A stretch of DNA of 64,000 bases, from NCBI GenBank assembly GCA_947259365.1, contig CAMYMC010000042.1, positions 19,954-83,953 on the forward strand. The letters run 5' to 3'. The DNA comes from an uncultured Acidimicrobiaceae bacterium. Its GTDB lineage: Bacteria; Actinomycetota; Acidimicrobiia; Spongiisociales; UBA5794. The position numbers and the translations under genes were made by a program. Positions 5,477 to 61,091 of the stretch are shown here, piece after piece. The notes below the pieces were generated by a model. That model was not told the origin of the DNA and searched no databases. It saw nothing but the letters and a program-made list of their open reading frames with translations. Position 1 is the first letter of the stretch. Each line of letters begins with the position of its first letter.

Positions 5477-5591
5477 CCGCCCCGAGTCTCGCACGTCGCC
5501 TCTCCGAGCATCGGGCGGCCGCCGCCGCCGGCGCCGTTCCACGCCGGCCAATTTCCTTGCAGCGGGTCACGGTCACGGTATCTTGTGCCGA

Positions 5592-7331
5592 ATGCGACCA
5601 CACTTGGTAGTCAGACTGCTACTGACCGCGATTGTCATCACGACGGCGACGCCGGCGGTGGCCGGACCGCTCCCCCCGGGCGGGTCCTTCGTCGACGACG
5701 ACGGGAACATCCACGAAGGGAGCATCGAGGCGATCGCCGCCGAGAACATCACCCGGGGCTGCAACCCGCCCGCCAACGACCGGTACTGCCCGTCGGGGAC
5801 GGTGACCCGCGGCGAGATGGCGGCGTTCCTCGTCAGAGCGCTCGGACTGGTCGACGACGGCGGTGGCGACCTCTTCGTCGACGACGACACGTCGATCTTC
5901 GAGGGCGACATCGACCGAATCGGCGCCGCCGGGATCACCCGGGGCTGCAACCCACCGGCCAACACCGACTACTGCCCCGACGACCCGGTCACCCGCGAGC
6001 AGATGGCCGCGTTCTTGGTCCGCGCCTTCGGGTACACCGACCCCGGTGCCGGCGACTGGTTCGTCGACGATGACACGTCGATCTTCGAGAGCGACATCGA
6101 CCGGCTTCGGGTCGCCGGCGTGACACTGGGCTGCAACCCACCGGCCAACGACCGGTTCTGCCCCCGCGACCCGGTACTGCGCGACCAGATGGCGTCGTTC
6201 CTCACCCGGGCACTCGGGCTGACACCGATGGTGCCGCCACCCCGCCCCGTGGCCGTCCTCGAGACCGTCGTCACCGGCCTGTCATCGCCGACGTACCTCA
6301 CCTCGCCGCCGGGCGATCAACGGCTCTTCATCGTCGAGAAACGGGGGACCGTTCGCATCTTCGAGAGCGGCGCGCTTCGGCCCGGGTTCTTCCTCGACGT
6401 CCGAAGCGACACCCTCAACGGCGGTGAGACGGGGCTGCTCTCGCTCGCCTTCCACCCCGAGTACGCGACGAACGGGCGGTTCTACGTGTACCAGAGCGGC
6501 TCCCTCCAACCGGGGGGCAGCGGCCACCATACGAGCTACATCTACGAGTACTCGGTGTCCGCCGACCCGTACGACGCCGACGAATCCTCCCGTCGCGAGA
6601 TCCTCGCCGTCGACCAGCGCGCCCCCAACCACAACGGCGGCCAGATCGAGTTCGGACCCGACGCCATGTTGTGGATCGGCCTCGGCGACGAGGGCGGCCA
6701 GGACGACACCTACGGCAACGGGCAGGACCTCGACACCCTCCACGGGGCCATGCTCCGCATCGACGTCGACGCCGGCTCGCCGTACGCGGTGCCGTCGGAC
6801 AACCCCTTCGTCGGCGCGGCGGGGCGCGACGAGATCTGGGCCTACGGGCTACGCAATCCCTGGCGCTGGGCCTTCTACGGCGGCGATCTGTACATCGCAG
6901 ACGTGGGCCAGAACGCAAGGGAGGAAGTCAACGTCGTGTCGCTGGCCGCCGGTGCCGGGTCGAACTTCGGATGGTGCGACTGGGAGGGCACCCGCAGCCA
7001 CGCCGGTTTCGCCAACTGTCCCGGTTCCGCCTCGGGGGTGACGTTCCCCGTCGCCGAGCTCAGCCACTCGGCCGGGAACTGCTCGATCACGGGCGGACGC
7101 GTGTACGACGGGAGCGCCCTCCCCGACCTCGTCGGTCACTACTTCTACGCGGACCTCTGTCGCGGCCACCTGCTCAGCTTCGAATGGGCCGGGGGCGCGG
7201 TCACGAACGCCAAGGACTGGACCGGAGAGCTCGGCACGATCGGGGGCATCTGGTCATTCGGCTCGGACTCGGACGGCGAGCTCTACATCGTGCGGGGAAG
7301 CGGCACGGTGCTCCGGCTCGCCGCCGGATGA
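5592..7331 (+). CDS. secreted PQQ-dependent sugar (glucose/sorbosone) dehydrogenase beta-propeller with three N-terminal SLH-like repeats
   Basis: Signal peptide. Three 62-aa repeats F.DDD..I.E..I..I...GIT.GCNPPAN..YCP...VTR.QMAAFLVRA matching the SLH consensus. C-terminal SGDH motifs (GLLSLAFHP, NHNGGQIEFGPDAMLWIGLGDEG, GLRNPWRWAF). Confidence 0.75.
   Translation: MRPHLVVRLLLTAIVITTATPAVAGPLPPGGSFVDDDGNIHEGSIEAIAAENITRGCNPPANDRYCPSGTVTRGEMAAFLVRALGLVDDGGGDLFVDDDTSIFEGDIDRIGAAGITRGCNPPANTDYCPDDPVTREQMAAFLVRAFGYTDPGAGDWFVDDDTSIFESDIDRLRVAGVTLGCNPPANDRFCPRDPVLRDQMASFLTRALGLTPMVPPPRPVAVLETVVTGLSSPTYLTSPPGDQRLFIVEKRGTVRIFESGALRPGFFLDVRSDTLNGGETGLLSLAFHPEYATNGRFYVYQSGSLQPGGSGHHTSYIYEYSVSADPYDADESSRREILAVDQRAPNHNGGQIEFGPDAMLWIGLGDEGGQDDTYGNGQDLDTLHGAMLRIDVDAGSPYAVPSDNPFVGAAGRDEIWAYGLRNPWRWAFYGGDLYIADVGQNAREEVNVVSLAAGAGSNFGWCDWEGTRSHAGFANCPGSASGVTFPVAELSHSAGNCSITGGRVYDGSALPDLVGHYFYADLCRGHLLSFEWAGGAVTNAKDWTGELGTIGGIWSFGSDSDGELYIVRGSGTVLRLAAG
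5688..6245 (+). repeat. 3 x 186-bp in-frame tandem repeat encoding the SLH-like modules
   Basis: TTCGTCGACGA(C/T)GAC... recurs at 5688, 5874 and 6060. High nucleotide identity between the copies. Confidence 0.8.
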
Positions 7332-10017: not shown

Positions 10018-10320
10018 ATGAAAGAGGAGCACAAGAGAGCCGCGCTGAACAGGTTGAAGACGGTACGCGGCCATCTCGACGCCGTCATCGGCATGGTTGA
10101 CGATGAGCGGTACTGCCCGGACGTCATGAAGCAAGTCTCGGCGCTCCAGGGCTCGCTCGAGAAGGTGAACCGAGTGCTCCTCCAGAACCACGTCGAGACG
10201 TGCGTGCTCGATGCCGTCGAGGAGGGGCGGTCCGCCGAAGTCGTCGACGAGTTGATGGAGACGCTGCGCTACACCCCGGCCGTGACCGGACCCATCCACG
10301 AGGAGCATCAGCACACATGA
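10018..10320 (+). CDS. csoR: CsoR/RcnR-family copper-sensing transcriptional repressor
   Basis: LKTVRGHLDAVIGMVDDERYCPDVMKQVSA...ETC: Cys/His metal ligands of the DUF156 family. Confidence 0.85.
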   Translation: MKEEHKRAALNRLKTVRGHLDAVIGMVDDERYCPDVMKQVSALQGSLEKVNRVLLQNHVETCVLDAVEEGRSAEVVDELMETLRYTPAVTGPIHEEHQHT

Positions 10321-10520
10321 CCGAACTGACCCTGTCGGTGCCCGACATCCATTGCGGGCACTGCAAGACATCGATCGAGGGCGCCGTCGCCCAGCTCGAG
10401 GGCGTCGACCGCGTCGAGGTCGCGATCGAACAGCGCACCGTCGAGGTCCGATTCGACGAGCCCGTGACGAAGGAGGCGGTCGTCGCCGCCATCGAGAACC
10501 AGGGCTACGAGGTCGACTGA
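10317..10520 (+). CDS. copZ: copper chaperone CopZ (HMA domain)
   Basis: [21 protein letters not shown]; ATGA overlap with the csoR stop. Confidence 0.8.
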
Positions 10521-10533
10521 CATCGCCCCCGCC

Positions 10534-12687
<2,154 letters not shown>

Positions 12688-31100: not shown

Positions 31101-32114
31101 TCAGAGCGAGACGACGGACGGGAACACGGCGACGGCGACGGCGACGGGGATCAGCAACGTCACCACGGCCACCGACCATCCGGTGATGCCGACGGGACGG
31201 GCCAGCGCTCTCAGCGGCTCCGTCACCATCACCGGGCGTCCTGAGCGCACCGACCTGGCAACGAGCACGAGCGCGACCAGAGCCATTGCCCCGAGCGCAG
31301 CGAGCATGACGAGCAACGCCCCGCCCCAGCGGATCGACGCGTTCGTTCCGGCCTGGATGCCGTCGGAGGCGAAGGCAACGTTGGCGACGACGATGAGCCC
31401 GTTCCACAGGGCGTGGGCGCCGATCGCGGTCGACCACGCCGCCGCCAGCCCGACGAGCGGCCTGTCCGGACGGGTGCGCCGCTCGTACCAGGCGAGGCTG
31501 ATGAGCGAGGCCCCGAACAGGTGGAGCCCAGCCCCAGCCGACCTGATGAGCGCGACCGGGAGCCAGCCGACACCGGAGACGGCGAGGCCGGTCGAGGCGT
31601 AGAGGAGGTTCTCCACGGCGGCGAATCCGGCGCCGGCGGCGGCGCCGAAGAGGAAGGCCTCGTGACGGCTGCGGGGACGACGCATCAGCGCTCCGAGCGG
31701 CTTCAGCGTCTCCTCGGCAAGCGGGGCGACGATGGCGGCTTCGACGAAGACGAACAGCGCCCATCCCGTCAGCAGCCTCTCCGGGACGCCGCCAGCCCCG
31801 GCCTCACCGAGCCCGGCCTTGAACGCGTCGGCGAAAGGAGTGACGACGGCCAGCACCGCCGCCGTGAGAACCCCCGCCGCCATGATGACGAGCACCGGCA
31901 CGAGGGTCCCCCCGATGATGGCGGAGGCCGTGAGGCGCCTGCGCTCGCCTCCTGGCCCGGCGACGGCGATCGCCAGGAACAGTGCGGTGACCGGCGCACC
32001 GGCGGCGGCAACGACGAGGGTCCCCCACCCGACGTCGTTCCCACCGGCCAGGCCGGCGATCATCGCTGCCGCGGTGACGACGAATGCGATGGCGAATCTC
32101 TTGAACGGGCTCAT
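31101..32114 (-). CDS. PrsW-family intramembrane metalloprotease
   Basis: 8 TM. EExxK (PLAEETLKP), FGAAAGAGFAAVEN, HALWN motifs of PrsW/CPBP-related proteases. The ATG at 32114 overlaps the stop of the upstream giant ORF. Confidence 0.7.
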   Translation of the reverse strand: MSPFKRFAIAFVVTAAAMIAGLAGGNDVGWGTLVVAAAGAPVTALFLAIAVAGPGGERRRLTASAIIGGTLVPVLVIMAAGVLTAAVLAVVTPFADAFKAGLGEAGAGGVPERLLTGWALFVFVEAAIVAPLAEETLKPLGALMRRPRSRHEAFLFGAAAGAGFAAVENLLYASTGLAVSGVGWLPVALIRSAGAGLHLFGASLISLAWYERRTRPDRPLVGLAAAWSTAIGAHALWNGLIVVANVAFASDGIQAGTNASIRWGGALLVMLAALGAMALVALVLVARSVRSGRPVMVTEPLRALARPVGITGWSVAVVTLLIPVAVAVAVFPSVVSL

Positions 32115-35100
32115 TCCCACTCCTCCAGAATCTCCCCGAGCCGGCTGAGCCTGCCGCCCACCCGGGCCCGGCTCCGCTCGAGCGCAGAGCCGGCGGCGAG
32201 CAGGACGGCGGCACCGACGGCGCCGACGATGAGCCAGGTCCCGCCGGCGAGGCCGCGGCGGGCACCTTCGACGACCGGGATGGCAACCGAGAGAACGATC
32301 GCAGTGGTGACGAGCGCCAGGCCGAGGATCGCCCGCCGCCGCACCGCGGTGGCGGCGCCCCACGCAAGCAGGGCGAACCCTTCGGCGGCGACGAGAACGC
32401 CGTAGCCGAGGCCGGTGAACATACTCCACATCGCCAGCGTCGGCGGGACGGCCATGACGAGCCATTCGAGCGCTCTGAGCAGCTTCGCCCAGCGCCCCCG
32501 GGCTCGGCCTGCACTGCGCTCGAGCTCGATGACGGCGAGGACGACGATGCCGATCGGGATCACCGTGCCGTGGAGGCCGAGCGAATTGACCTCACCGGCG
32601 ATGAGCAGCGCCGCGGCGAGCCACGTGACGAGTGCGCCCTGGATGAGAGTGACCCGCCGTGTGCCGGCGCCAAAGGCGGCAACGGAGCCACCGGCGACGG
32701 CGAGGGAGATGCCGACCTCGAACGACAGGAAGCCGAAGGCGGCGGCCGCGGCGACGAGCGAGACGACTCCGAGGGCGAAACCGGCGCCAGACAGCGCACC
32801 CAGGGAGCGGCCCGACCACGGAACGCCGCCGCCCACGGCGACGAGGCCCATGATCGCGACCCCGATGACGGCCGGGGCAACGAGGACGTCGGCGGTGATG
32901 GCGGCCGCGGTGAGGTAGGCGGCGGACACCCCGACGAGGGCGGCCGCCGTGTTGCGGAGCCCGCGGACGAAGGCGCTGGAAGGAGCGAGGGCCGCGGCGT
33001 AGGCGGCGGCGACCGCCGCCACGGTCGCAGACAGGGCGAACGCCCCCGCGTCCTCGTGACTGTTGTAGCCCAGTGCGATCGCGCCCACTCCGGCGACTCC
33101 GGCGGCGCTGCGGAGGGGAACCAACCAGACACGAGCCCGGACCGAACTCCGGGAGTGCACGGCAAGAGAGGAACCGGCGGCGACGATGGCCGCACCGACC
33201 AGGGTGTTGGCCCGGGCGGCGACGGTGAGATCGAACGCCGCCATCAACGCCACCACGGAGGCTGCAGCGAAGACGATCGAAGTGCTCACAACGGTCGCCT
33301 CCACCAACGCGGTGCCCAGCACGCCGATGGCCAGTGCTTCGACCCCGAGGGCAATCCCGAGCACGAGCTCTCCGTCGATGGCGGGAGCGACAAAGGCGGA
33401 GAACACCGCGTAGCCGATGGCGACCTGGGCCACGGCCAGCGGCTGCCACCGCCACAGTGCTGCGACCTGGGACCGTCCGCCGAGGGACGTGAGCCCACCG
33501 AAGACGGCGACGAGGGCGGCGCCGAGCGCAGCCGAGAGCGCGAACCGGGTGCCGGCGTCCGCGCCGAGCGCGGCGTCGGCAAACGAGAGTGCAGCGGTGG
33601 CGAGGGCGGCGCTCACCCAGGCGAGCCGGGCTGCCCGCCCGATAGTGGCGACGACGGCGGTCACGACCGCCTCGACCCCGAGCACGGCGGCGGCGAGCCG
33701 GAACACAGCGTCGGAATCGAACTCGACGGCGCCTGTCACAACCGCGACCGTCAGGCCGACCTGGCCGACGGCGTGGGCTTGAAGGGCCCAGCGTGCCAGC
33801 CGCCGGGGCACGGCGCGATGACCCGACACCGCCGCGATGACTGCGATGACGCCACTGGCGGCTCCTGCGGCGATGATCCGCGACCCGGGTGCCGGCCAGA
33901 GCCACTCAACTCCCGACCAGCCCGCGGCGACGGCGAACGCGGCCGCAGTCCAGGCCAGCGGGCTCCACAAGGCGGTGTCACGCCGAGCCTCGGCGAGAGA
34001 CGCCGCCGCTGCCGCCGCGACCGCCAGTGTGATCGGCAGCCATCCCCCTCCGGCGGAGACGCCCGCAGCGGCAAAGAGCACGACCGACGCATAGGCGAAC
34101 CCGGCTTCACGGCGCGCCCAGTAGAGGGCCGCGGCGAGAACGGCGCCGGCGAGCAGCACCGTGGAGGCCGTGCCGGCGAACAGGGCGGAGACGATGGCGA
34201 CCCCGGCGGTGCCGAGACCTGCGGCCAGGGTGCCGGCGGCGGGCCGGTGGACGAGATCCCAGCCGTAGCGACCGGGGAGCAGCACGGATCCGAGGGAGAG
34301 GGCGAACGCGAGCGGCATCCACCACACCGGATCCTCGAGGAGGTTCACCCAGCGGCCGGCGACATCACCGTATGCGAACCCGACGAGGACGGACACGGGG
34401 AGCGACACGCCCCCGGTGGCGGTGCCCCATCCGAGAACGGCGAAGCAGCCGGCCGCGACGACGGCGAGCAGCCACACGACCCTGCCGTCGGCGAACCCGT
34501 ACCCGACGATCGCAGGGAGGACGCCCAGCATGACGCCGACGGCGGCCCGGAGCCAGGGTGACGTCAACCCGGGATCGCCGCCGCGACGCCGGTTGAGCAC
34601 GGCAGATGTCGCGACGACGACGGCGGCGATCCCGAACACGAGGAAATGGACGTCCCGGACGGCGAGGCCGACCTCGACCGCACCCAGGGCGGCGGCGACG
34701 GTGGCGAGCGGCCACGAGAGCGAGGTGAGGAACGGCCGCTTCGTGGTCGTTGCCACCACGGCGGTGAGCAGCGCCGCCGAGCCGAACGCCACGCCGGCGG
34801 GGCCGCGGAACGGGGCGGCGACGAGGACGGCACCCAGGGCGGCGGCGTGGGCGGCGACGAGGGCGAGCCTGCACATCACGCCCCGGGACCGTCCGCACAT
34901 CCACAGATTGACCCACGACAGGGTGACGAGTGATGCCGTCAGTCGCCAACCCGGATCGGGGAACACGTCGAATCGGTCGGCGGCGAGGATGACGAGGGGA
35001 TGGGCGGCGGCGACTGCGATGACTGCGGGAGCAAGCCGGATCGCAGGTCCGAGAGCTTCGACGAGAAGCTCCACCAGCGGCGCCCCGCCGCGGGACACAC

Positions 35101-37018
35101 GATGGGCCTCGACGGCGTGGGTGGCCACGATGACGCCCAGTGCGACGAGCACCCCGTCTTCGATCCGGGGATGAACGATGAGCGCCGCGTACACGAACAC
35201 GTGGCCGACGACCCCGGCGGCGAGCACCGCAGTCCTGCCGATGCCGGCGATCGAAACAGCGACGAGGACCGCGCCGACGACGCCGAACGCGACGACATCG
35301 GCCATGGCGGTCCCGTAGGTGCCCCACCCGGATACGGCCCGGCCCGTCATCGCCGTGCCGGCGACGAGTGCGGTCGCCGCGAGCGGTATCCGGACGGGGG
35401 CTGCGACGTCGAGGAGGGCGGCGGTGACGGCCGTCATCAGGATCACGGTGCCGCGGACCCCGAGCGAGGTGACGAATCCGTCGGGCCCGGGGACCACCGC
35501 CATCGCCGCGGCGGCGAAGCCCAGTATCGCTGCCGGGCCGAGCGCATAGGACCGCAGCGGATCGAACCGGCCCGATGCGAACCGGCCAACAGCACATGCG
35601 ATGGAAAGCCCGCCGAGCGTCTGAGGGATCGCCGCGGTCGGGACGAGGCGGATCACTCCGGCACCGATGGCGACGAGCGGAGGGATCCACAGCTCCACGG
35701 CCTGGTGGACCCGCCCGAACCCGACGGGCGCCAGCTCCGCGGTCACCGTGCGAACCGAGCTCGAGATCCCACGGGCGACGGTGAGCCCCGAGACGAACCC
35801 CCACCCGATGACGGCGGTGACGGGGTCGATCGTGGCGAGGCCGAGCCCGATGAACCCGGCGATGCGGGCAACGTGGACGACAAGGACGCTGCGACCTCCT
35901 ACGACCCGGTCCAGCGCCCAGATCCCGATGCCGTACGCCACCAGCCCCAGCCCGAGCCACGATGGATCGAGTCCGATCGTCGGCGTGAGACCGAGGGAGA
36001 TGCCGACCGAGACGTATGAAAGGGTCCGCAGCACGGGGGAGATGTCGCGGCGGAGCCGGACCGGGAGGCCCGCCCAGGCGAAGCCGGTGTCGGACGCGAC
36101 CCACAGCACCGCGGCGGTGAGCAGTGAAGCGACGATGATCGCCGGGGCGAGGTCGGTCAGGCCGGGATCAGCGAGGCCGGCCACCCTCGCGTCGTTGAAG
36201 GCAAAGACGAGGGAGAGGACGAGGACGGCGGGCGCGGCGACCGACGCCATCCGCACGGTGGGAGCGGCCAGCGGAGCGAGCGCAGGGACGGTGCGCATCC
36301 TGGAGGCGAGCGCCATCGAGATCGCGATGGCGCCGAGGACGGTGAACAGTTGCGGCGCGGACATGCCGTGCTCCCAGAAGAGGCCGAGCGCTCCGGCAGC
36401 CGCCCAGATCATCGGCGCAGCGAGGTACGCGTAGATGCGCTCACGCCGCGCCAGTCGGTGATAGACGGTGGCGGTCACCACTCCGACGACGGCGTAGGCG
36501 GGCCACCTGGCGGGTCCGTTGACGTCGGGCGGCCACATCGACCCGTCGCGGAAGAGCGCAGACATCATCACCGGGATCGTGAGCCCCCCGATGAGCCCGA
36601 CTGCGGTCGCGGTAGCGGGGAGGTCGCTCCGTCGCCCCAGGTAGTGGGCGAGTCCGAAGAACAGCGCAGGCGTGGCGACGAAGAACACCGGTCGGAGGTT
36701 CTTGACCGTGACGAGGTCGCCGAAGTAGCCGAAGGCGAAGAACACGAAGATGACGAGGATCGCGAGCAGGACGCCGAGGTAGGTGAGGGCATTAGCGGCG
36801 AAGTCGGCGCTGAACGCCCGCCATGTCCTCTTCATCCGGTCGGCGACGCTCGATCTCGCCTTCTCCCAGCTCCGGCCGGATCCCGGCCCGCCGGCCGGTC
36901 CCCCTGCCGGCCGGCGGACTCGGGCACCCTGCCGTCCGTCGACGGGGTCGGCGATCTCGCCTGGCGCCTTCCGTGGAGATGTCTTCGCCGATGTCTGGTG
37001 CGGGGATGTGTCGTGCAT
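32111..37018 (-). CDS. giant polytopic integral membrane protein (about 1635 aa, >35 predicted TM helices), hypothetical
   Basis: One uninterrupted ORF. Ala/Val/Gly/Leu-rich with regularly spaced hydrophobic helices; only the first about 60 aa are hydrophilic. Start uncertain (ATG 37018 or Met62 at about 36835). Opposite-strand ORFs here are shadows. Confidence 0.6.
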   Translation of the reverse strand: MHDTSPHQTSAKTSPRKAPGEIADPVDGRQGARVRRPAGGPAGGPGSGRSWEKARSSVADRMKRTWRAFSADFAANALTYLGVLLAILVIFVFFAFGYFGDLVTVKNLRPVFFVATPALFFGLAHYLGRRSDLPATATAVGLIGGLTIPVMMSALFRDGSMWPPDVNGPARWPAYAVVGVVTATVYHRLARRERIYAYLAAPMIWAAAGALGLFWEHGMSAPQLFTVLGAIAISMALASRMRTVPALAPLAAPTVRMASVAAPAVLVLSLVFAFNDARVAGLADPGLTDLAPAIIVASLLTAAVLWVASDTGFAWAGLPVRLRRDISPVLRTLSYVSVGISLGLTPTIGLDPSWLGLGLVAYGIGIWALDRVVGGRSVLVVHVARIAGFIGLGLATIDPVTAVIGWGFVSGLTVARGISSSVRTVTAELAPVGFGRVHQAVELWIPPLVAIGAGVIRLVPTAAIPQTLGGLSIACAVGRFASGRFDPLRSYALGPAAILGFAAAAMAVVPGPDGFVTSLGVRGTVILMTAVTAALLDVAAPVRIPLAATALVAGTAMTGRAVSGWGTYGTAMADVVAFGVVGAVLVAVSIAGIGRTAVLAAGVVGHVFVYAALIVHPRIEDGVLVALGVIVATHAVEAHRVSRGGAPLVELLVEALGPAIRLAPAVIAVAAAHPLVILAADRFDVFPDPGWRLTASLVTLSWVNLWMCGRSRGVMCRLALVAAHAAALGAVLVAAPFRGPAGVAFGSAALLTAVVATTTKRPFLTSLSWPLATVAAALGAVEVGLAVRDVHFLVFGIAAVVVATSAVLNRRRGGDPGLTSPWLRAAVGVMLGVLPAIVGYGFADGRVVWLLAVVAAGCFAVLGWGTATGGVSLPVSVLVGFAYGDVAGRWVNLLEDPVWWMPLAFALSLGSVLLPGRYGWDLVHRPAAGTLAAGLGTAGVAIVSALFAGTASTVLLAGAVLAAALYWARREAGFAYASVVLFAAAGVSAGGGWLPITLAVAAAAAASLAEARRDTALWSPLAWTAAAFAVAAGWSGVEWLWPAPGSRIIAAGAASGVIAVIAAVSGHRAVPRRLARWALQAHAVGQVGLTVAVVTGAVEFDSDAVFRLAAAVLGVEAVVTAVVATIGRAARLAWVSAALATAALSFADAALGADAGTRFALSAALGAALVAVFGGLTSLGGRSQVAALWRWQPLAVAQVAIGYAVFSAFVAPAIDGELVLGIALGVEALAIGVLGTALVEATVVSTSIVFAAASVVALMAAFDLTVAARANTLVGAAIVAAGSSLAVHSRSSVRARVWLVPLRSAAGVAGVGAIALGYNSHEDAGAFALSATVAAVAAAYAAALAPSSAFVRGLRNTAAALVGVSAAYLTAAAITADVLVAPAVIGVAIMGLVAVGGGVPWSGRSLGALSGAGFALGVVSLVAAAAAFGFLSFEVGISLAVAGGSVAAFGAGTRRVTLIQGALVTWLAAALLIAGEVNSLGLHGTVIPIGIVVLAVIELERSAGRARGRWAKLLRALEWLVMAVPPTLAMWSMFTGLGYGVLVAAEGFALLAWGAATAVRRRAILGLALVTTAIVLSVAIPVVEGARRGLAGGTWLIVGAVGAAVLLAAGSALERSRARVGGRLSRLGEILEEWE

Positions 37019-37183: not shown

Positions 37184-37330
37184 AGAGGAGGGATGCATGC
37201 ACCAACGCCTGCCCGATGACGACCGCCGATACGATCGACACCGCCGCGGCGACCGGCCCGCAGACAGAAGCGGCCCGGGCCGAGTGTCGCCGACCGGGGG
37301 GTCGTCCCGTTGAGCTCCCGGCAGGCCGCG

Positions 37331-38536
37331 ATGCCGGGAGCCGGGCACGGCGCGGATGGGGCGACGCCGCACGGGGCGGTCCGGTGGGTAACGTTCGCAC
37401 CACGGATGACGGGGACGGAGAACACGCCGCCGACCTCGACCCTCGACGTCGATGCGACGTTGCGGTGGGTCGTCGTCGCGTTTCGCGCGCTCTCCTGGCT
37501 GTGGATGCTGGGGCTCGTCATCACCGCGCTCGTCACCGACGAGGGCGTGCGACCGGCAGTGGCCACGATCGCCATCGTCCTCGCCACGGTGTGGACGGCG
37601 CTCACCGCCCTGATGGCGGCGAGCCGGCGCCTCGCCAACCCCGTGTTCGTCGGCACCGACGCGGTCGTCGGCCTGCTCATCGGCGGGGCGTCATGGGCGG
37701 CTGACGCCGAGCGCTTCTTCCACGGGGGAATGCCGATGTCGGCCATCCTCGTGGTCGCCTTCGCCTTCGGGTTGCGGGGTGCCCTTCCGCTGTCCGTGGT
37801 CATCGCCGCCGAGCAGTTCCTCATCCAGATCGGCGAGCCGGGCGGCCTCAGCGGTGCCATCGGCAGCGTTGTGTTCCCGATCTTCGCCATCGTCATCGGC
37901 GTTGCCTTCGACACCCTGCGGCGCAACGAGGAGCTCCGGGTCGAGGCGGAGCGGAGACTCGTGCTCGAGCAGCGGGAGCGGGCGCGGCACGCAGAACGCG
38001 CTGACCTCGCCAACCGGCTCCACGACTCCTTGCTGCAGACGCTCCAGGTGATACGCACCGACGCCGACGACACCGAACAGGTGCGGTACCTCGCTCGCCG
38101 CCAGGAGCGCGAGCTCCGTCACACGATCGACGAGTTCCGCAGCCCCCACCGGAACAGCTTCCGCGCCGCCCTGCTCACCGCCGCCGACACGATCGAGGAC
38201 ACGTACCGGGTCGAGGTCGACGTCGTGATCCGTGACGACGCCGAGATGGACGACAGGCTCGAGGCCGTCGTCGAGGCGGCGAGGGAGGCGCTGACGAACT
38301 CGGCGAAGCACTCCGGCGCCGATCGCATCGACATGTACGCCGAGGCCGGATCCGCGGAGGTGCAGGTGTTCGTCCGGGACCGGGGGAAGGGCTTCGACCT
38401 GTCCAACGGCCCGGGCGGCGGCGGGCTCGAGCACTCGCTGGCCAGCAGGGTGGCTGCGGTCGGCGGCGAGGTGCGGGTGAGCACGGCGCCGGACGAGGGC
38501 ACCGAGGTCGCCATCCGGTTGGGCGCGGAGACATGA
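37331..38536 (+). CDS. intramembrane-sensing histidine kinase (5 TM N-terminus, HisKA_3 + HATPase_c)
   Basis: ERADLANRLHDSLLQTLQ H-box (NarL-type); HATPase G-boxes. No periplasmic domain. Start ambiguous (TTG 37310 / ATG 37331 / ATG 37406). Confidence 0.7.
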   Translation: MPGAGHGADGATPHGAVRWVTFAPRMTGTENTPPTSTLDVDATLRWVVVAFRALSWLWMLGLVITALVTDEGVRPAVATIAIVLATVWTALTALMAASRRLANPVFVGTDAVVGLLIGGASWAADAERFFHGGMPMSAILVVAFAFGLRGALPLSVVIAAEQFLIQIGEPGGLSGAIGSVVFPIFAIVIGVAFDTLRRNEELRVEAERRLVLEQRERARHAERADLANRLHDSLLQTLQVIRTDADDTEQVRYLARRQERELRHTIDEFRSPHRNSFRAALLTAADTIEDTYRVEVDVVIRDDAEMDDRLEAVVEAAREALTNSAKHSGADRIDMYAEAGSAEVQVFVRDRGKGFDLSNGPGGGGLEHSLASRVAAVGGEVRVSTAPDEGTEVAIRLGAET

Positions 38537-39201
38537 CGGAGCGCAAGCGGGTCTTCCTCGTCGACGACCACGACACGACGCGCCTCGGTGCCCGTCACTA
38601 CCTCGAGGAACGGTTCGACATCGTCGGCGAAGCCGATCACGTCGATGCCGCCATCGAGTTGATCACGGAACGTCAGCCCGATCTCGTCCTGCTCGACGTC
38701 CGTCTCCCCGGAGGCGGAGGCCGTGCGGTGGTCGACGCCGTCCGGCGGACCCATCCGGACATCAAGTTCCTTGCGTTCACCATGTCGACGTCACGCGACG
38801 ACGTCGTCAGCCTCCTCGAGGCCGGGGTCGACGGGTACATCACGAAGGGCACGTACGGTTCCGAGCTCCCCGACCTCGTCGAGCAGGCGCTCGCCGGAGG
38901 CAATCCCATCTCCCGTGACGTCGCCGCGTACCTGCTCGACATCGACGAGGGGATCGTCGAGGCGTCGGGTATCGAGCGGCTCACACCGCGCGAACGCGAG
39001 GTGGTGAACCTGATCGCCCGGGGCTACACGTACCGGGAGACGTCGAGCCGGCTCGGCATCGCCGTCAAGACGCTGGAAAGCCACATCCACCGCATCTTCG
39101 AGAAGCTCGGCATCGCCAGCCGCCACGAGCTCGCCGCCCTGGCCTACGACGCCGGGTTCATCCGTCCCGACGACGATCGGAACGGCGACGCCGCGGACTA
39201 G
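38533..39201 (+). CDS. NarL/LuxR-family response regulator
   Basis: REC domain (VFLVDDHD...LLDVRLPGGGG) plus LuxR HTH (LTPREREVVNLIARGYTYRET). ATGA overlap with the kinase. Confidence 0.85.
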   Translation: MTERKRVFLVDDHDTTRLGARHYLEERFDIVGEADHVDAAIELITERQPDLVLLDVRLPGGGGRAVVDAVRRTHPDIKFLAFTMSTSRDDVVSLLEAGVDGYITKGTYGSELPDLVEQALAGGNPISRDVAAYLLDIDEGIVEASGIERLTPREREVVNLIARGYTYRETSSRLGIAVKTLESHIHRIFEKLGIASRHELAALAYDAGFIRPDDDRNGDAAD

Positions 39202-48916: not shown

Positions 48917-49229
48917 CGGAGACCCGGGTGCTCGTCGGTTTCGTCCGGACACGATGCCGCAGCAACGGGCCGCCGCTGCAGAGCCCTTGGACCCGGATTC
49001 GGAGGCCACCACCCCATCCGATCGGACGAGGCCCGACACTCGGCAGGGTCGTCCAACGGGTCGGCCGTGCCCGTTCGCCCGGACGAGGGCGGGTCTTAGG
49101 TCCCTGACCGACCAAGTTCCGCCTCGGCCGAAAAGACGATGACGCGGAGACGAAGAGTCGGATATCGGACTGAGCCGCGGTTCCGGATGATGACGCCAGG
49201 CATCGAACACGACCACAGGGAGGTTTGAA

Positions 49230-50445: not shown

Positions 50446-51387
50446 ATGAGACGCCCACTAGGAGTGACTGCAGCACTTCTCGTGATGGCCTCGCTGGTGA
50501 TGGGATCCGCGGCGGCTGCAGATAACGCCGTGGATCCCATCGTCGACTTCGCCGTCAGCCCTTCCCGGCTCGAGCTGAGGGTCGAGCCGGGTGACGCGCT
50601 GGAGGTGCCGATCGAGGTGCTCAACCGGGGGACGACGCTGACGCTCGACACGTACGTCGAGGACATCGGCATCCCCCTCGGCGAGCTCGTCGACCCCGAC
50701 GAGCTCGCCTTCACCGCGAGCCGGTGGGTGACGTTCGCCGCACCGACGCTGGCCGTGGAGCCGGCGGCGACCGGGCAAGCCCTGTTGCGGATCGCGATCC
50801 CCGAGACGACCCCGTCCGGGGGCTACCACGCCTTCGCGTTCTTCCAGAGCCGGCCGATCGAGGGTGGCCACGGCATCGTCCCCGCAGGCCGGATCGGGAT
50901 CACCCTCCTCCTCGAGGTCGCCCCCGGCGACAAGGAGCTGGTTCGCGCCGCCAGGGTCAGCGAGGAGAAGCTCTCCGTTCGCTGGAACGGACCGTTCGAC
51001 CCCGACGTCGTGGCGAGGACCACGATCGACAACACCGGCGAGGCGCACCTCGTCACCGGTGGCGTCCACACCTACCGGCGGTGGCCGGGCACCGCCGCAG
51101 CCGACGTCCGTGTCGGGCCGCACACGACGCTACGGGGGACGAGGCACACGTTCGAAACGACGTGGGATGCGGTGCCCCTCATCGGCAAGGTCACATTGAC
51201 GAGCGAGCTCGTCTACCAGGTGACGCCCGACGACCTCCCCGTGATTCTGACCCAGCACACGATCTGGATCATCCCGTGGCACCTCATCGGCGTCCTGCTC
51301 GCCGCCGCCACGATGGCCGTCTTCGTCATCCGGCGGAGACGGAACCGCACAACACAGATTCCATGGAGAGAAACGGAGTTCGCATGA
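50446..51387 (+). CDS. surface protein with signal peptide and C-terminal TM anchor plus RRRRNR stop-transfer, hypothetical
   Basis: Beta-rich about 250-aa ectodomain; C-terminal WHLIGVLLAAATMAVFVIRRRRNR. Confidence 0.5.
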   Translation: MRRPLGVTAALLVMASLVMGSAAAADNAVDPIVDFAVSPSRLELRVEPGDALEVPIEVLNRGTTLTLDTYVEDIGIPLGELVDPDELAFTASRWVTFAAPTLAVEPAATGQALLRIAIPETTPSGGYHAFAFFQSRPIEGGHGIVPAGRIGITLLLEVAPGDKELVRAARVSEEKLSVRWNGPFDPDVVARTTIDNTGEAHLVTGGVHTYRRWPGTAAADVRVGPHTTLRGTRHTFETTWDAVPLIGKVTLTSELVYQVTPDDLPVILTQHTIWIIPWHLIGVLLAAATMAVFVIRRRRNRTTQIPWRETEFA

Positions 51388-51872
51388 AGAACCGGTTGAC
51401 CATCCTTGCCGGGGTGACGGGGGTGCTTCTGGGGCTGTTCCTGGTCGGCACGGCGTGGGCGGCGACGACGACGGTCTCGCTCACCGTCGACAACAAGTTC
51501 GTCCCCGGGAGCCCCACCATCGAGGTCGGCGACACGGTCACGTTCACCTGGGACGGAGGCTTCCACGACGTCGTCTTCGCCGACGGCGTGAGCTCGGGCA
51601 CACCCGTCGGGGACGTCGGAACGACGTTCTCCCGAACGTTCGAGGCGACCGGAACCTACCCGTACGTCTGCACCGTCCACGAGGCGCTCGGCATGACGGG
51701 CACGATCACCGTGCTCGTCGCCGCCGGAGGCGGCGGTGCGGGAGGCGGCGGTGGCGGTGGCGGACAGCAGCTTCCCTTCACCGGGCCCGAGGACGGCATC
51801 CTCCCGATCGCGGGCGCGGCGCTCGTCGTAGCCGGCAGTCTTGTCCTCCTCCGGCTGAGGCGGGCCGGCTGA
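51384..51872 (+). CDS. plastocyanin-like cupredoxin with C-terminal LPFTG sortase sorting signal
   Basis: Signal peptide. Type-1 Cu ligands H61 (GGFHDVVF), C96-x2-H99-x4-M104 (YVCTVHEALGM). Gly-rich spacer, LPFTG at aa 130-134 (nt 51771-51785), hydrophobic helix and RLRRAG tail. Confidence 0.75.
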   Translation: MKNRLTILAGVTGVLLGLFLVGTAWAATTTVSLTVDNKFVPGSPTIEVGDTVTFTWDGGFHDVVFADGVSSGTPVGDVGTTFSRTFEATGTYPYVCTVHEALGMTGTITVLVAAGGGGAGGGGGGGGQQLPFTGPEDGILPIAGAALVVAGSLVLLRLRRAG

Positions 51873-51875
51873 GCA

Positions 51876-52724
51876 ATGCGTGACCCGTGGGTCGACGCGA
51901 CGGCGACACTGCCGGCCTACCGGCAGCCGACCGCGCCGCGTCGCCACCTCGTGCGGGCCAGCCTCGCCGCCCTCGCCACCGGGATGATCGTCCTCGGCCT
52001 CGGGCTCATGGCGCTCCCCGCCTTCGAGGAGGCGGCCGGCCAGTGGCAACAGCAGGAGCTCGCCACCGAGCGAGACGCCAGCATCACCCGCTACGGAAAC
52101 GCCCTCGCCGCCGCGTACGACGTGGTCGTCTCCGACTTCGAAGACCCCATCGTGGCCTTCGAGATCGGGGCGCTGCCCCGGGCTGCGGACGGGATCATCG
52201 TCGAGCTCGCCCCGGCGACACTGCCCGAGACGGCGTCACCGCCGCTCCCGCCGCCCCCGGCGGCAGGCCATGCACCCGCGTCGGGACCGGCAGCGGCAGC
52301 AGAGCCGGCGCTCGCGTTCGACAACGTCACGATCCGCATCCCCACCATCGGGGTCGACCAGGCCGTCGTCGAGGGGGTCGGGCGCGCCGACCTCAAGGTC
52401 GGGCCGGGGCACTACCCGGGGACGGCGCTCCCCGGTCACACCGGAAACATGGTCATCTCCGGGCACCGCACGACGTACACGAGGCCGTTCCACGACGTGG
52501 ACCTCCTCGCTCCAGGCGACCCGATCATCATCGACGTACCCTCCGGCTCGTTCCGCTACGTCGTCGAGCGGCAGTACGTCGTGGAAGCGACGGATCTCTC
52601 GCCGCTGCTCGCCACCGAGGAGGCGACGCTCACGCTCACGACCTGCACCCCGAAGGGCAGCGCCCGGAAGCGACTCGTCGTCGTCGCCCGGCTTGACGGG
52701 CCGCCGGTGGACGTGACCACGTGA
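51876..52724 (+). CDS. class E-type sortase (transpeptidase)
   Basis: N-terminal TM anchor. Catalytic His (MVISGHRTTY), Cys (TLTLTTCTP), Arg (RLVVVARL). 3 nt after the LPFTG gene. Confidence 0.75.
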   Translation: MRDPWVDATATLPAYRQPTAPRRHLVRASLAALATGMIVLGLGLMALPAFEEAAGQWQQQELATERDASITRYGNALAAAYDVVVSDFEDPIVAFEIGALPRAADGIIVELAPATLPETASPPLPPPPAAGHAPASGPAAAAEPALAFDNVTIRIPTIGVDQAVVEGVGRADLKVGPGHYPGTALPGHTGNMVISGHRTTYTRPFHDVDLLAPGDPIIIDVPSGSFRYVVERQYVVEATDLSPLLATEEATLTLTTCTPKGSARKRLVVVARLDGPPVDVTT

Positions 52725-57726: not shown

Positions 57727-59394
57727 TCACGGCCTGGGGATGGCCCGTCCGTTGCAGTCGAGGCCTTCCGCCGGCCGGTACGTGGCGATGACCATGTCGT
57801 CGAGCGTCGTGCCGTCCGGGGCCGTGCGCGTCCGGAAGGTGTTGACCCGGGTGCACGCCCCGATTCGGAACGAGCTCTGCCCGGACTCGGCGACGTCCCA
57901 GTACTTCGTCGAGTAGAACTGCACGGTGATCGACGTGTCGGTGTAACTCGTCCAGATGAGCAGCCCGTACGGGGTGTTGTTGACGACGGCGAGGTCGGGC
58001 GCGGGGAACGACAGCGTCGCTTCCCGCCCGTACGGGTAGCGGCTGATGTAGATCGTGTGGGACCGGTAGGCGTCGAAGTCGAGGCCGGCCAGGAACGCCG
58101 CGTTGAACATCGTCGTGGCGAACTGCGAGATTCCGCCGCCGACGTCGTCGACGAAGTGGCCCTGGCTGATCGTGCCGGCGGCGACGAAACCCTTCTCCCG
58201 CGTCCTGGGTCCGATGAACTCGTTGATGGAGAACACCTCCCCCGGCTCGAGCATCTGGCCCCGGACGAGATCCGCGATGCGATGGATGTTGCTCACCCTC
58301 GACTGGCAGCAGCGGTGCCTCGTCGTGAACTCACCAACGACCTCCTCGATGCCGAGGCTCTCGACACGGGCCCGGCCGCCGTCCGGTTCGGCGAGACGGA
58401 CCGGCAGCTCCACGGTCTCGAGGCCACCAGAGGCGGCGGCGTCGTACATGAGCTCGGTGATACCGGCGTCGGCGGCGCAGCAGCGGTACGCCGGCGTCCC
58501 CAGCTCGAAGGAGACCTCGCCGTCGACGACGTCGAACGTCGGTGGCCCCGGCTCGCTCGTCAGCGGCGCCAGCAGCCGCTCCAGCGAGGGTTCGACTCGC
58601 TCCGGGACGAAGACCGGCACGAGGGTCCCGCCGGACACCACCCCATCGATCCAGGCGCGGACGCTCCCGGCGCCGATGACGGCGGGATGGTCGTTGACGG
58701 CAACACGGAGCGGGACCGCCAGGCGCTGCGCGGCGGCGATCGCGGCATCGAGCTGCAGGTCGGAGATGTCGGTCGGCTCGACGCCCCACGCCACGTCGAC
58801 GGCGTCGGGAGGGTGCGACGGCGCGAGCGCCGCCTCGAGGGCCCTCACGACGAGCCGGTGGTCGAGGTACTGACCCGGAACCGGACGCTGCACCTCGAAC
58901 CCACCGACGACGCCGGTGAACGTCGGCTCGATGGGGACGCTGCGGAGCCGATCGGGGTGGGATTCGACGAACGTGCGGGTCGCCGACGGATCGACGAAGA
59001 ACTCCATCTCGAGGTCCTCGCCCTCGTACCAGGAACGGACCCACGACCGGAAGTCGTCGACGACGCCCGGACCGGAGCCGACCCTCATCGCCGCCGCCGC
59101 GATGGCCTCCCGGTCGTAGCGAAGACCCAGCTCCCCCGCGCCAGCAGTGATCGTCAGACCCGGTAGGTGCAGCTCGATGTCCTCGGCCAGCCGATCAGCG
59201 CCGATTCCGTCGATGGCGCGTTCGAGGTCGGCGGCACCGAGGCCGCCGATCGCCCGACCTTCGAGCGTCACGTTGCGGGGCACCTCGGCATCGGTCACGG
59301 CCCGGTCGACGATGTACGCCCCGCCCACGAGGAGCACCACCAGCGGTGGAACAGAAAAGATCGCGATGACGAGCGATCGCACGAGCCGTCGCAT
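57727..59394 (-). CDS. VanW-family protein (N-terminal TM anchor)
   Basis: C-terminal VanW motifs (YRSHTIYISRYPYGREATLS, NNTPYGLLIWTSYT); 555 aa from MRRLVRS. Confidence 0.7.
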   Translation of the reverse strand: MRRLVRSLVIAIFSVPPLVVLLVGGAYIVDRAVTDAEVPRNVTLEGRAIGGLGAADLERAIDGIGADRLAEDIELHLPGLTITAGAGELGLRYDREAIAAAAMRVGSGPGVVDDFRSWVRSWYEGEDLEMEFFVDPSATRTFVESHPDRLRSVPIEPTFTGVVGGFEVQRPVPGQYLDHRLVVRALEAALAPSHPPDAVDVAWGVEPTDISDLQLDAAIAAAQRLAVPLRVAVNDHPAVIGAGSVRAWIDGVVSGGTLVPVFVPERVEPSLERLLAPLTSEPGPPTFDVVDGEVSFELGTPAYRCCAADAGITELMYDAAASGGLETVELPVRLAEPDGGRARVESLGIEEVVGEFTTRHRCCQSRVSNIHRIADLVRGQMLEPGEVFSINEFIGPRTREKGFVAAGTISQGHFVDDVGGGISQFATTMFNAAFLAGLDFDAYRSHTIYISRYPYGREATLSFPAPDLAVVNNTPYGLLIWTSYTDTSITVQFYSTKYWDVAESGQSSFRIGACTRVNTFRTRTAPDGTTLDDMVIATYRPAEGLDCNGRAIPRP

Positions 59395-59433
59395 GGGGCG
59401 GGATGGTAGGGGGAACCCCCCCTTGTTCAATAC

Positions 59434-59468
59434 ATATCGATTCGATATAGTTATATCGGATCGATATA
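59434..59468. promoter_or_regulatory. two AT-rich palindromes ATATCGATTCGATAT and TATATCGGATCGATATA (candidate PadR operators)
   Basis: Located 14-48 nt upstream of the PadR ATG in an otherwise GC-rich genome. Both share the ATATCGA half-site. Confidence 0.55.
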
Positions 59469-59481
59469 ACATGGACCGATC

Positions 59482-59979
59482 ATGATGGATCTCGCCGTTC
59501 TCGGACTGCTCCACGAGGGGCCGCTCCACGGATACCAGGTACGACGCCGGCTCCACGAGCTCGGGTTCCGCCGGGTGTCCTTCGGCTCGCTCTACCCGGC
59601 GATTCGCCGGCTCGAGGGACGGGGGTGGATCGCGGCGAGGCGCGGCAACGGCCGGCGCAAGGAGTACGGGCTCACCGAGGAGGGTCGCCGCGCCTTCGAG
59701 GAGCTGCTCGATGCCGGGGTCGACGACGGCGACGAGCGGAGATTCCGGATCCGGCTCGCCTTCTTCGCCCATCTCGAGCCCCACCGGCGGATCGCGGTGC
59801 TCGAAGAGCGCCGGGCGGTGCTGACCGACCGGCTCGCAGAGCTGCGGCGGAACCGGCGGCGGAGCACGCCGGCCGACCGCTACACGGTGGCGCTGATGGA
59901 GCGCAGCGTGGCGACGACCGAGAGCGAGATCGCATGGCTCGACGGCCTCGTCGCCGCCGAGCGGGCGGGTCGCACGTGA
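59482..59979 (+). CDS. PadR-family transcriptional regulator
   Basis: [17 protein letters not shown]...[13 protein letters not shown] wHTH. Confidence 0.8.
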
Positions 59980-61091
59980 TCGAACGGCACCCCGGCAGAG
60001 ACGAGTCGGCAATGGAGGCAACAGTGGACAGCGTGAAGGTCGCAATCGCCGGAGTCGGCAACTGCGCGAACGCCCTCCTTCAGGGCGTCACGTACTACGA
60101 GAAGGCGGACCCCGACGAGACGGTCCCGGGGCTCATGCACGTCGAGCTCGGCGGCTACCACGTGGGCGACATCGAATTCGTCGCTGCCTTCGACGTCGAC
60201 GCCGCCAAGGTCGGCACCGACCTGAGCGAGGCGATGTGGGCGTTCCCCAACGACACGATCGCCTTCGCCGACGTCCCCGACCTCGGGGTGACGGTGCAAC
60301 GGGGCCCGACCCTCGACGGCCTCGGCACGTACTACCGAGGCGAGATCGAGGAGTCGGACGCACCGGCCATCGACGTGGCCCGGGTGCTCACGGCGAGCGG
60401 CGCCGACGTGCTCGTCTCGTATCTCCCCGTCGGATCACAGCTCGCGACCCAGCACTACGCCGCCGCCGCGCTCGAGGCGGGCATCGCCTTCGTCAACTGC
60501 ATCCCGGTGTTCATCGCCTCGAATGGGGACTGGGGGGCACGCTTCACCGCCGCCGGTGTGCCGATCATCGGGGACGACATCAAGTCCCAGGTCGGAGCGA
60601 CGATCGTCCACCGCACCCTGGCCCGGCTCTTCGAGGACCGGGGCGTGCCCGTCGAGCGCACGTACCAGCTCAACGTCGGCGGGAACATGGACTTCATGAA
60701 CATGCTGGAACGGGAGCGGCTCCAGTCCAAGAAGGTGTCGAAGACCCGATCGGTGACGAGCCAGCTCGACCACGACGTCGCCGCCGGAGACGTCCACATC
60801 GGCCCTTCCGATCACGTGCCGTGGCTCACCGACCGCAAGCTCGCGTTCATCCGGCTCGAGGGGAGCGGCTTCGGCGACGTACCGCTCACCGCCGAGCTCA
60901 AGCTGGAGGTGTGGGATTCCCCCAACTCGGCCGGCGTCGTGATCGACGCCATCCGCTGCGCCCGGCTCGCTCTCGATCGGGGGATCGGCGGACCCCTCGA
61001 GGGCCCGTCGTCGTACTTCATGAAGAGCCCGCCGGTGCAGCACCGCGATGGCGTCGCTCGCGATCTGGTAGAACGGTTCATCGAGGGTTGA
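59976..61091 (+). CDS. ino1: myo-inositol-1-phosphate synthase (actinobacterial/archaeal Ino1 type)
   Basis: Near-colinear with M. tuberculosis Ino1 motifs ([76 protein letters not shown]). GTG 59976 overlaps the PadR stop (alternative ATG 60012). Confidence 0.9.

Follow-up and report, generated by a model that had tools for sequence, protein, structure and literature searches.

A 64-kb stretch of DNA from an uncultured Acidimicrobiaceae bacterium (assembly GCA_947259365.1, contig CAMYMC010000042.1, positions 19,954 to 83,953 of the forward strand; the whole stretch of 64,000 nucleotides is hereafter called the window) encodes a small blue-copper protein, or cupredoxin, of 162 amino acids (aa) that ends in an LPXTG-type sorting signal and is followed, 3 nucleotides (nt) past its stop codon, by the gene of a membrane-anchored sortase. 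Judged from synteny, the two genes are one module of a conserved six- to seven-gene envelope cassette of Acidimicrobiia. The most probable reading of this cassette is that the dedicated sortase links the cupredoxin to peptidoglycan within a surface complex resembling those of the Csc/WxL type, probably for extracytoplasmic electron transfer. The direct support for this reading lies in sequence anatomy, conservation, synteny and similarities of fold.

The cupredoxin gene carries a GGAG Shine-Dalgarno sequence 7 nt 5' of its ATG, and its translation reads MKNRLTILAGVTGVLLGLFLVGTAWA / ATTT...VLVAAGGGGAGGGGGGGGQQ-LPFTG-PEDG-ILPIAGAALVVAGSLVLL-RLRRAG up to the stop codon, or, divided into its parts, MKNRLTILAGVTGVLLGLFLVGTAWA / ATTTVSLTVDNKF...GGFHDVVF...YVCTVHEALGMTGTITVLV / AAGGGGAGGGGGGGGQQ / LPFTG / PEDG / ILPIAGAALVVAGSLVLL / RLRRAG (Table 1). 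The N-terminus is a Sec signal peptide that is also kept in the aligned homologues. The domain that follows matches the plastocyanin/azurin-type family PF00127 of Pfam (39.8 bits against a cutoff of 21.2, E 6e-10, residues 38-110), and its top relatives by sequence in the PDB are plastocyanins. Halocyanin is the best NCBIfam domain match; the protein scores below the NCBIfam equivalog cutoffs for halocyanin, plastocyanin, amicyanin, and pseudoazurin and therefore belongs to none of these named subfamilies. A search of 5.8 billion protein clusters yielded about 50 full-length homologues, and 51 sequences entered the conservation counts given throughout. Across these, H61, C96, and H99 are invariant and M104 nearly so, and the copper loop has the plastocyanin-like spacing C-x2-H-x4-M. 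With the PF00127 match and all four type-1 ligands in place, the protein is a type-1 (blue) copper cupredoxin that is predicted to bind copper, as an earlier note made from the letters of the DNA had proposed. The named homologues all come from metagenome-assembled genomes (MAGs) of Acidimicrobiia, and two of them carry the JGI label 'LPXTG-motif cell wall-anchored protein'.

The same note had described the C-terminus as a Gly-rich spacer, LPFTG, a hydrophobic segment, and an RLRRAG tail spanning 51771-51872; translation bears out this tripartite signal, and the coordinates are exact. The textbook sortase-substrate architecture that it described is complete. As to the motif, the family signal is xPxTGPE, with Leu in first position in 23 of 51 homologues (Gln in 13, Met in 9, Val in 4), and the window protein is missed by the anchor models discussed below. 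The core of the signal is strongly conserved: Pro is found in 51/51, Thr in 50/51, and Gly in 51/51, the third position being mostly Phe. The conservation extends beyond the Gly, where Pro (51/51) and Glu (50/51) are followed by Asp (35/51), Ser or Thr (43/51), a hydrophobic residue, and Leu, with a further Pro at +7 in 48/51. As read from the alignment, the family signal is thus [L/Q/M/V]-P-x-T-G-P-E-D-S/T-h-L-P rather than LPXTG proper. In the homologues it closes with some 16 hydrophobic residues and a terminus rich in Arg and Lys, and every member has 28-32 aa past the predicted Thr-Gly cleavage site. Between the cupredoxin domain and the motif lies a hypervariable spacer, 6-63 residues long and rich in Gly, Thr, Ala, or Ser. 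An invariant or nearly invariant xPxTGPE beside so variable a spacer points to purifying selection on the sorting signal, which, on these counts, is no chance match. One cassette variant (L046:2620-3060) carries the divergent signal YPYTGPGSLLIP, in which Gly replaces Glu after TGP, and illustrates some plasticity on the primed side.

The signal is also singular in its surroundings. A six-frame scan of the whole window (70% G+C) for the motif, a hydrophobic stretch, and a basic tail returned one credible case, the cupredoxin itself, and the same scan of about 185 kb of related loci returned the orthologous cupredoxins alone. The pattern search that the earlier note had suggested thus singles out the protein it had picked.

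The gene next to the cupredoxin encodes the sole sortase found in the window by tblastn. Its catalytic residues H197, C257 (in TLTTC), and R266 do not vary among eight cassette sortases and align with those of the solved structure 5go5; the enzyme placed directly downstream of the cupredoxin by the earlier note thus has an intact catalytic triad. The closest solved sortases are the class E entries 5go5 and 5go6 (E 5e-17), then a class D enzyme; 5cuw, also class E, matches at E 6e-10. Among the NCBIfam models class E likewise scores best (108.8 bits), followed by class D (92 and 83.5), class C (77), and class F (26.6). An invariant GHY (Y180) in the cassette sortases aligns with the GHY of 5go5 and matches Tyr229 of SrtE1, a correspondence drawn from sequence alignment and not from a structure. 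In SrtE1, H228 is the last residue of strand beta3, and Tyr229 opens the beta3/beta4 loop; this tyrosine has been proposed to favour Ala at substrate position P3, the class E preference being LAXTG (PMC5148588). By its scores and alignments the cassette enzyme is class-E-like, paired with a Pro-containing signal rather than with LAXTG.

The cassette sortases share a further trait. Their extracytoplasmic segment at aa 50-106 is strongly conserved (GQWxQHELA...RYxxA...AYDxVxSDFEDALVSFEIGALP), and 76 related sortases lack it; it could serve in docking or in the selection of substrates, or act as a lid. A scan of metagenomes with the sortase alignment returned 80 loci, of which four (L043-L046) match this N-terminal segment, all four carrying the cupredoxin cassette; it is missing from the remaining 76, whose catalytic domains show 46-60% identity, and a few of these have neighbours with LPFTGADIE- or LAFTG-type motifs. 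The joint occurrence of segment and cassette in L043-L046, and in none of the 76 relatives, argues for a specialised enzyme-substrate pair. The cassette sortase thus appears, from sequence comparison, to be a specialised offshoot of a broad class-E-like clade.

The genetic context is equally constant. The sortase gene lies immediately 3' of the cupredoxin gene in 14/14 cassette loci, as established from gene tables and tblastn (window, L001, L002, L003, L004/L034, L005, L036/L043, L038, L039, L040, L041, L042, L045, and L046; L044 repeats the L040 lineage and is not counted among the 14). Wherever a locus has upstream sequence, the cupredoxin gene is directly preceded, usually with an overlap, by a gene whose product has about 313-336 aa. 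Most loci have, further upstream, a cupredoxin-FN3 protein of about 395-404 aa; most also have a HisKA_3 histidine kinase directly after the sortase, together with a LuxR-type regulator; and most have a divergently transcribed cupredoxin protein of 530-670 aa (with cupredoxin matches in L034, L036, L039, and L041). The minimal version, L040, has three genes, for a 336-aa protein, the cupredoxin, and the sortase. In the window, six genes on the same strand are separated by 16, -4, 3, 30, and -4 nt, and this tight or overlapping spacing indicates an operon. The adjacent two-component system probably controls the cassette. A near-palindrome, AGTCGGATATCGGACT (49156-49171, about 60 nt upstream of the start at 49230), is largely kept in L039, which is 88% identical, and is a candidate operator for the LuxR-type regulator of the cassette; the intergenic regions of the window and L039 are too alike to expose operators by alignment, and scans for consensus promoters, including sigma-70, and for terminators came back empty.

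Three further secreted or membrane proteins complete the cassette, and two of them also carry cupredoxin domains. The divergent 661-aa protein matches Pfam Cupredoxin_1 (E 2.9e-10), Copper-bind (E 1.2e-6), and, weakly, SoxE/sulfocyanin, and its approximately 470 aa between the signal peptide and the cupredoxin domain have no family match. The 399-aa protein consists, in order, of a signal peptide, a cupredoxin domain (H76, C118, H121, and M141), an FN3 domain, a 14-aa linker, and a C-terminal beta domain. All three cupredoxin domains of the cassette keep the full His/Cys/His/Met type-1 ligand set. At aa 30-36 of the 399-aa protein, just past the predicted signal cleavage site, stands a conserved P-A-x-A-x-H-G-x-T-T in which His34 is nearly invariant; placed at or beside the start of the mature protein, this His could provide an additional metal site or a point of ligation.

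The third protein, of 313 aa, comprises a signal peptide, two Ig-like beta-sandwich domains, a conserved VWIIPWHL, a transmembrane (TM) helix, and RRRRNR, the AlphaFold2 (AF2) model having a mean predicted local distance difference test score (pLDDT) of 87.7. It has no Pfam or NCBIfam match, and family-wide Pfam searches gave weak, generic Ig-like matches only; no curated NCBIfam model covers it, the 399-aa protein, or the LPXTG-type cupredoxin. Its family comprises about 50 clusters and is as restricted in distribution as that of the cupredoxin. In Foldseek searches of the PDB the model matches WxLIP of Enterococcus faecium best (E 7e-11 to 3e-10), in the entries 9i1y and 9i25_C, the latter in complex with a long WxL protein; chaperone-usher chaperones rank next. 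A search of PDB sequences with the family profile found nothing.

The C-terminal domain of the 399-aa protein also belongs to a wider family. A hidden Markov model (HMM) of the domain, run against 1.84 billion representatives, recovered 128 proteins of a widespread family that has no Pfam match; many members are small secreted proteins of about 165-185 aa and consist of a signal peptide and the domain alone, and several are large proteins, giant surface proteins among them, whose chain ends in the domain (1845, 1748, and 470 aa). On an unrelated contig (L123:643-2233), the gene that comes after one for a small domain protein encodes a 309-aa protein homologous to the 313-aa one (hhalign 99.8%, E 4.5e-28), and on a second contig, of about 1 kb, a small domain protein is accompanied by a weak N-terminal match to the WxLIP-like family.

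From these elements a course of events may be proposed in which cleavage, peptidoglycan attachment, complex formation, and the redox role are the steps that we infer. The cupredoxin would be exported via Sec, its signal peptide being removed after AWA26, and the hydrophobic segment and RLRRAG tail would retain the precursor in the membrane. Cys257 of the sortase would then attack the T133-G134 bond to form a thioacyl intermediate, and the cross-bridge amine of lipid II would resolve this intermediate, leaving the cupredoxin covalently bound in peptidoglycan near the membrane; these sortase steps follow established sortase biochemistry (PMC5148588). The mature protein would have 107 residues, made up of the 84-aa domain and a 23-aa Gly-rich tether, and so short a tether (the spacer being 6-63 residues across the family) would place the copper centre within the wall near the membrane, not beyond it. 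The 399-aa cupredoxin would be displayed at the surface through its C-terminal beta domain, probably docked on the membrane-anchored, WxLIP-like 313-aa protein, and the 661-aa cupredoxin would be held by its TM helix, giving three cupredoxins with three modes of anchoring. The small cupredoxin would, in this scheme, be the single dedicated substrate of the neighbouring sortase.

Several observations weigh against this reading. All members of the cupredoxin family come from MAGs of uncultured bacteria, and cleavage and wall linkage are predictions throughout the family. The canonical LPXTG is present in under half of the family, and the window cupredoxin is unmatched by the anchor HMMs PF00746 (Gram_pos_anchor; Pfam, E <= 10) and TIGR01167 (NCBIfam, E <= 0.01), a miss that, given the conservation of the signal, is treated here as a limit of sensitivity and not as counter-evidence. 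The sortase falls short of the class E cutoff (NF033747, 160 bits) and of every other curated class cutoff, and its substrates have Pro at P3 in 51/51 homologues despite the class E tyrosine of the enzyme. On the side of the proposed complex, the 313-aa model superposes on WxLIP with TM-scores of 0.42-0.49, and the family reaches Pfam WxLIP_PGBD below threshold (E 0.066-0.09, in five sequences). Membership of the 399-aa C-terminal domain in Pfam WxL was rejected, there being no match at E <= 10; PDB sequence and profile searches gave only noise. The first W-S-L of this domain is conserved (W305 is invariant) with Y-T-V in place of the second WxL motif; the Asp at W-8 and Arg at W-6 of WxL proteins are absent from it; and no WxL chain is among its top 50 Foldseek matches. 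The likeness to WxL/Csc systems is one of fold and architecture only. Finally, genes related to oxidases (CtaA, SURF1, and multicopper oxidases) occur beside the cassette in some loci only, and none lies beside that of the window, which is flanked by housekeeping genes.

As to function, the retention of the full type-1 ligand set in all three domains favours electron transfer, and extracytoplasmic electron transfer between tethered blue-copper centres is the most likely role that the sequences suggest. The main functional rival keeps the anchoring as proposed and has the cassette buffer or deliver copper at the interface of wall and membrane, for instance in the maturation of cuproenzymes or in copper tolerance, with the kinase sensing copper. 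Cupredoxin folds do serve in copper chaperones, the cassette has its own two-component regulator, and its variable neighbours include Cation_efflux and thioredoxin-like genes (L036 and L040), multicopper oxidases (L041), CtaA (L036), and SURF1 (L034), the last two giving a mere hint, in two loci, of a tie to cytochrome oxidase assembly. Against this, full type-1 ligand sets are typical of electron carriers and not of the exchange-labile sites of chaperones, and the copper-efflux pair of the window lies 39 kb away and shows no synteny with the cassette elsewhere; copper handling is accordingly regarded as unlikely. That pair (10018-12687, forward strand) consists of a 100-aa metal-sensing repressor of the CsoR type, closely followed by a 717-aa copper-type P1B ATPase that has an HMA domain, a standard efflux pair, and a functional link between it and the cassette was rejected on its distance and its absence from the other loci.

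Electron transfer between the tethered centres could be carried further. It is conceivable, if rather doubtful, that the TM-held, sortase-fixed, and WxL-like-docked cupredoxins form a blue-copper relay across the monoderm envelope, joining the respiratory chain to an extracellular donor or acceptor such as Fe(II), Mn(II), or a mineral; such a relay would do with copper what multihaem-cytochrome conduits do in other bacteria. By analogy, the membrane remnant left after cleavage (GPEDSxLP and the TM segment) might report the efficiency of anchoring to the adjacent histidine kinase. Signalling by a sortase-generated C-peptide has a precedent in Streptococcus gordonii, as cited in PMC11326707 and PMC11502775. 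The kinase of the cassette has an extracytoplasmic loop of about 155 aa and is therefore not of the intramembrane-sensing type.

Two other fates of the cupredoxin were weighed, and both are less likely than its anchoring to peptidoglycan. The sortase might ligate it to a Lys or to the N-terminal amine of the 399-aa or the 313-aa protein, giving a covalent hetero-oligomer or a short pilus-like fibre. In favour of this, the dedicated sortase is transcribed together with several surface proteins, the 313-aa protein has a likeness to chaperone-usher chaperones as well, and the 399-aa protein has a conserved mature N-terminus (x-H-G-x-T-T). The profile of the small relatives of the 399-aa C-terminal domain, moreover, weakly matches the TLP-1/TLP-2 pond-water fibrils (9ikj and 9ikk, E 6e-4), which are held by donor-strand exchange. 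The mature cupredoxin, however, has no conserved Lys, K38 being variable in the 51 homologues, which makes self-polymerisation unlikely; the sortase is nearest to housekeeping class E, not to class C; and neither a pilin motif nor a lid motif was seen. Ligation to a partner protein is on balance improbable, and a pilus-type polymer of the cupredoxin itself was rejected for want of that Lys.

It is more improbable still that the C-terminus is a plain membrane tail anchor whose LPFTG goes unprocessed while the sortase serves substrates elsewhere in the genome. The silence of the anchor HMMs, the variable first position of the motif, and the LAXTG preference described for class-E-type enzymes would all fit such an anchor, and the substrate scans covered the window and the approximately 185 kb of loci alone. 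A plain TM anchor would not be expected to keep P-x-T-G-P-E invariant in 51 homologues beside a hypervariable spacer, nor to stand next to a sortase in all 14 loci, the minimal L040 included, with no other sorting-signal protein near these sortases. Sorting of the PEP-CTERM/exosortase kind, considered on account of the 'PE', the TM segment, and the Arg tail, was rejected in view of the conserved Thr-Gly and the sortase adjacent in 14/14 loci, and no exosortase-like gene is present in any of the locus gene tables.

Table 1. Parts of the blue-copper cassette and their places in the window (residue numbers refer to the encoded protein).
Feature	Window position (nt)	Residues (aa)	Strand	Remarks
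Divergent envelope protein, 661 aa	46931..48916		-	signal peptide MQRVPRMAVTAAVVAGLLSFPSAAAAG, cupredoxin FVCNIPGHADGGM, Pro-rich segment, C-terminal TM helix
Divergent intergenic region, 313 bp	48917..49229		.	presumed shared control region
Secreted cupredoxin-FN3 protein, 399 aa	49230..50429		+	Pfam Copper-bind, fn3; AF2 pLDDT 87.9
C-terminal 135-aa beta domain of the 399-aa protein		262-399		conserved W-S-L motif; ends LYTVTQP
WxLIP-like protein, 313 aa	50446..51387		+	stop overlaps cupredoxin start by 4 nt (ATGA)
LPXTG-type cupredoxin gene	51384..51872		+	162 aa; translation, Pfam, NCBIfam, homologue alignment
Cupredoxin signal peptide	51384-51461	1-26	+	MKNRLTILAGVTGVLLGLFLVGTAWA then A; AxA cleavage site
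Type-1 cupredoxin domain, 84 aa	51462-51713	27-110	+	ligands H61, C96, H99, M104
Gly-rich spacer	51714-51770	111-129	+	
LPFTG pentapeptide	51771-51785	130-134	+	predicted sortase cleavage between T133 and G134
Predicted Thr-Gly cleavage				within motif peptide GQQLPFTGPEDG
Motif peptide GGQQLPFTGPEDGIL				predicted scission after Thr
Rest of sorting signal	51786..51869		+	PEDGILP, hydrophobic segment, basic tail
Conserved primed-side PEDGILP		135-141	+	motif tabulation, 51 homologues
Hydrophobic segment ILPIAGAALVVAGSLVLL, 18 residues	51798-51851	139-156	+	
Basic tail RLRRAG	51852-51869	157-162	+	
Stop codon of cupredoxin	51870-51872		+	
Membrane-anchored sortase, 282 aa	51876..52724		+	PF04203, E 3e-30
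Sortase TM helix		~27-49		N-terminal
Sortase juxtamembrane conserved segment	~52023-52193	50-106		
Sortase Pro/Ala-rich linker				between juxtamembrane segment and catalytic domain
Sortase catalytic domain		146-275		
Sortase catalytic residues	52464-52466; 52644-52646; 52671-52673	H197; C257 (TLTTC); R266	+	
HisKA_3 histidine kinase, 578 aa	52755..54491		+	Pfam HisKA_3, HATPase_c; two TM segments flank ~155-aa extracytoplasmic loop
NarL/LuxR-type response regulator, 212 aa	54488..55126		+	Pfam Response_reg, GerE; start overlaps kinase stop by 4 nt

Elsewhere in the window a second pair of histidine kinase and LuxR-type regulator (37310-39201, forward strand) is a distant relative of the cassette pair, at 27-30% identity. 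Two further genes encode envelope-related proteins, namely an 871-aa protein with a long, unassigned N-terminus and a C-terminal glucose/sorbosone dehydrogenase domain (4716-7331, forward strand) and a 772-aa VanW-like protein with a peptidoglycan-binding domain (57727-60045, reverse strand). An open reading frame of 1635 aa (32111-37018, reverse strand), with coding-like codon statistics and no Pfam match, is apparently polytopic and has a very high content of Ala, Val, Leu, and Gly; the AT skew of the region it occupies is unusually high (0.35-0.38).

Where an outer membrane is lacking, bacteria have no periplasm in which to hold soluble electron carriers, and the known answers are lipid anchors, TM anchors, and fusion to respiratory complexes. 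Halocyanin, sulfocyanin, and auracyanin are small type-1 copper carriers of this kind, tethered by lipid or TM anchors at the outer face of the membrane where there is no periplasm. The tether of the cassette cupredoxin differs from theirs in being a predicted covalent link to peptidoglycan made by a sortase. If a cupredoxin were fixed to peptidoglycan by a sortase of its own, this would add another answer to the same problem, one in which the redox centre lies inside the wall and not on the membrane. A full-text literature search returned no report of a sortase- or LPXTG-anchored cupredoxin, consistent with the remark of the earlier note that wall anchoring of such proteins is rarely reported.

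The cassette parallels, by analogy, the surface complexes of CscA-D and WxL proteins, with copper proteins as cargo. Csc/WxL clusters of Lactobacillales and Bacillales comprise CscA/WxLIP, WxL proteins, and an unusually small LPXTG protein, CscD (PMC1534035; Siezen, 2006); WxLIP has the architecture DUF916, DUF3324, and TM helix (PMC10599100), and WxL proteins fall into small and large forms with Asp at W-8 and Arg at W-6 (PMC9772566). Both systems consist of exclusively secreted proteins and combine a membrane-anchored protein of two Ig-like domains and a TM helix, a multidomain protein ending in a docking module, and a small sortase-anchored protein. The dichotomy of small and large forms, and the pairing with a WxLIP-like protein, are reproduced in the family of the 399-aa C-terminal domain. 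The differences are nonetheless considerable. Csc/WxL clusters are found in Firmicutes, whereas the cassette belongs to Acidimicrobiia of the Actinomycetota, has no Pfam WxL, DUF916, or DUF3324 matches, and, unlike those clusters, brings its own sortase and two-component system; CscD is a peptide of 40-60 residues, whereas the small LPXTG protein of the cassette carries a folded cupredoxin; and the passengers are copper proteins in place of adhesin or lectin domains. The cassette would thus carry a Csc/WxL style of surface organisation beyond gut Firmicutes and into Acidimicrobiia of marine and sediment habitats.

Among actinobacterial copper proteins attached to the wall, the nearest precedent is the copper monooxygenase ScLPMO10D (CbpC) of Streptomyces coelicolor, which is anchored by a class E sortase and whose wall association has been demonstrated experimentally (PMC10067821). 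Like the cupredoxin, it joins a copper domain through a low-complexity Gly/Ala-rich linker to a sorting signal, hydrophobic segment, and basic tail. Its copper site is the histidine brace of an enzyme, whereas that of the cassette protein is the type-1 site of an electron-transfer cupredoxin; its signal is LAETG and not xPxTGPE; and it is served by general housekeeping sortases rather than by an adjacent dedicated one. The Streptomyces sortases SrtE1 and SrtE2 (5cuw and 5go5; PMC5148588) share with the cassette enzyme the His/Cys/Arg triad and a GHY containing the class E tyrosine; the cassette enzyme differs from them in its sub-cutoff score, in the Pro instead of Ala at P3 and the Pro-Glu on the primed side of its substrate, and in the extra segment at aa 50-106. 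The pair offers natural material for the study of sortase specificity, a class E tyrosine being set against an invariant P3 Pro, a variable P4, and a conserved primed side. Sortase anchoring, cupredoxins, and Csc-like clusters are each already known, and the system is not new in kind; what is new is the combination, in Actinomycetota, of a dedicated class-E-like sortase, an extended Pro-containing signal, a cupredoxin substrate, and a WxLIP-like scaffold.

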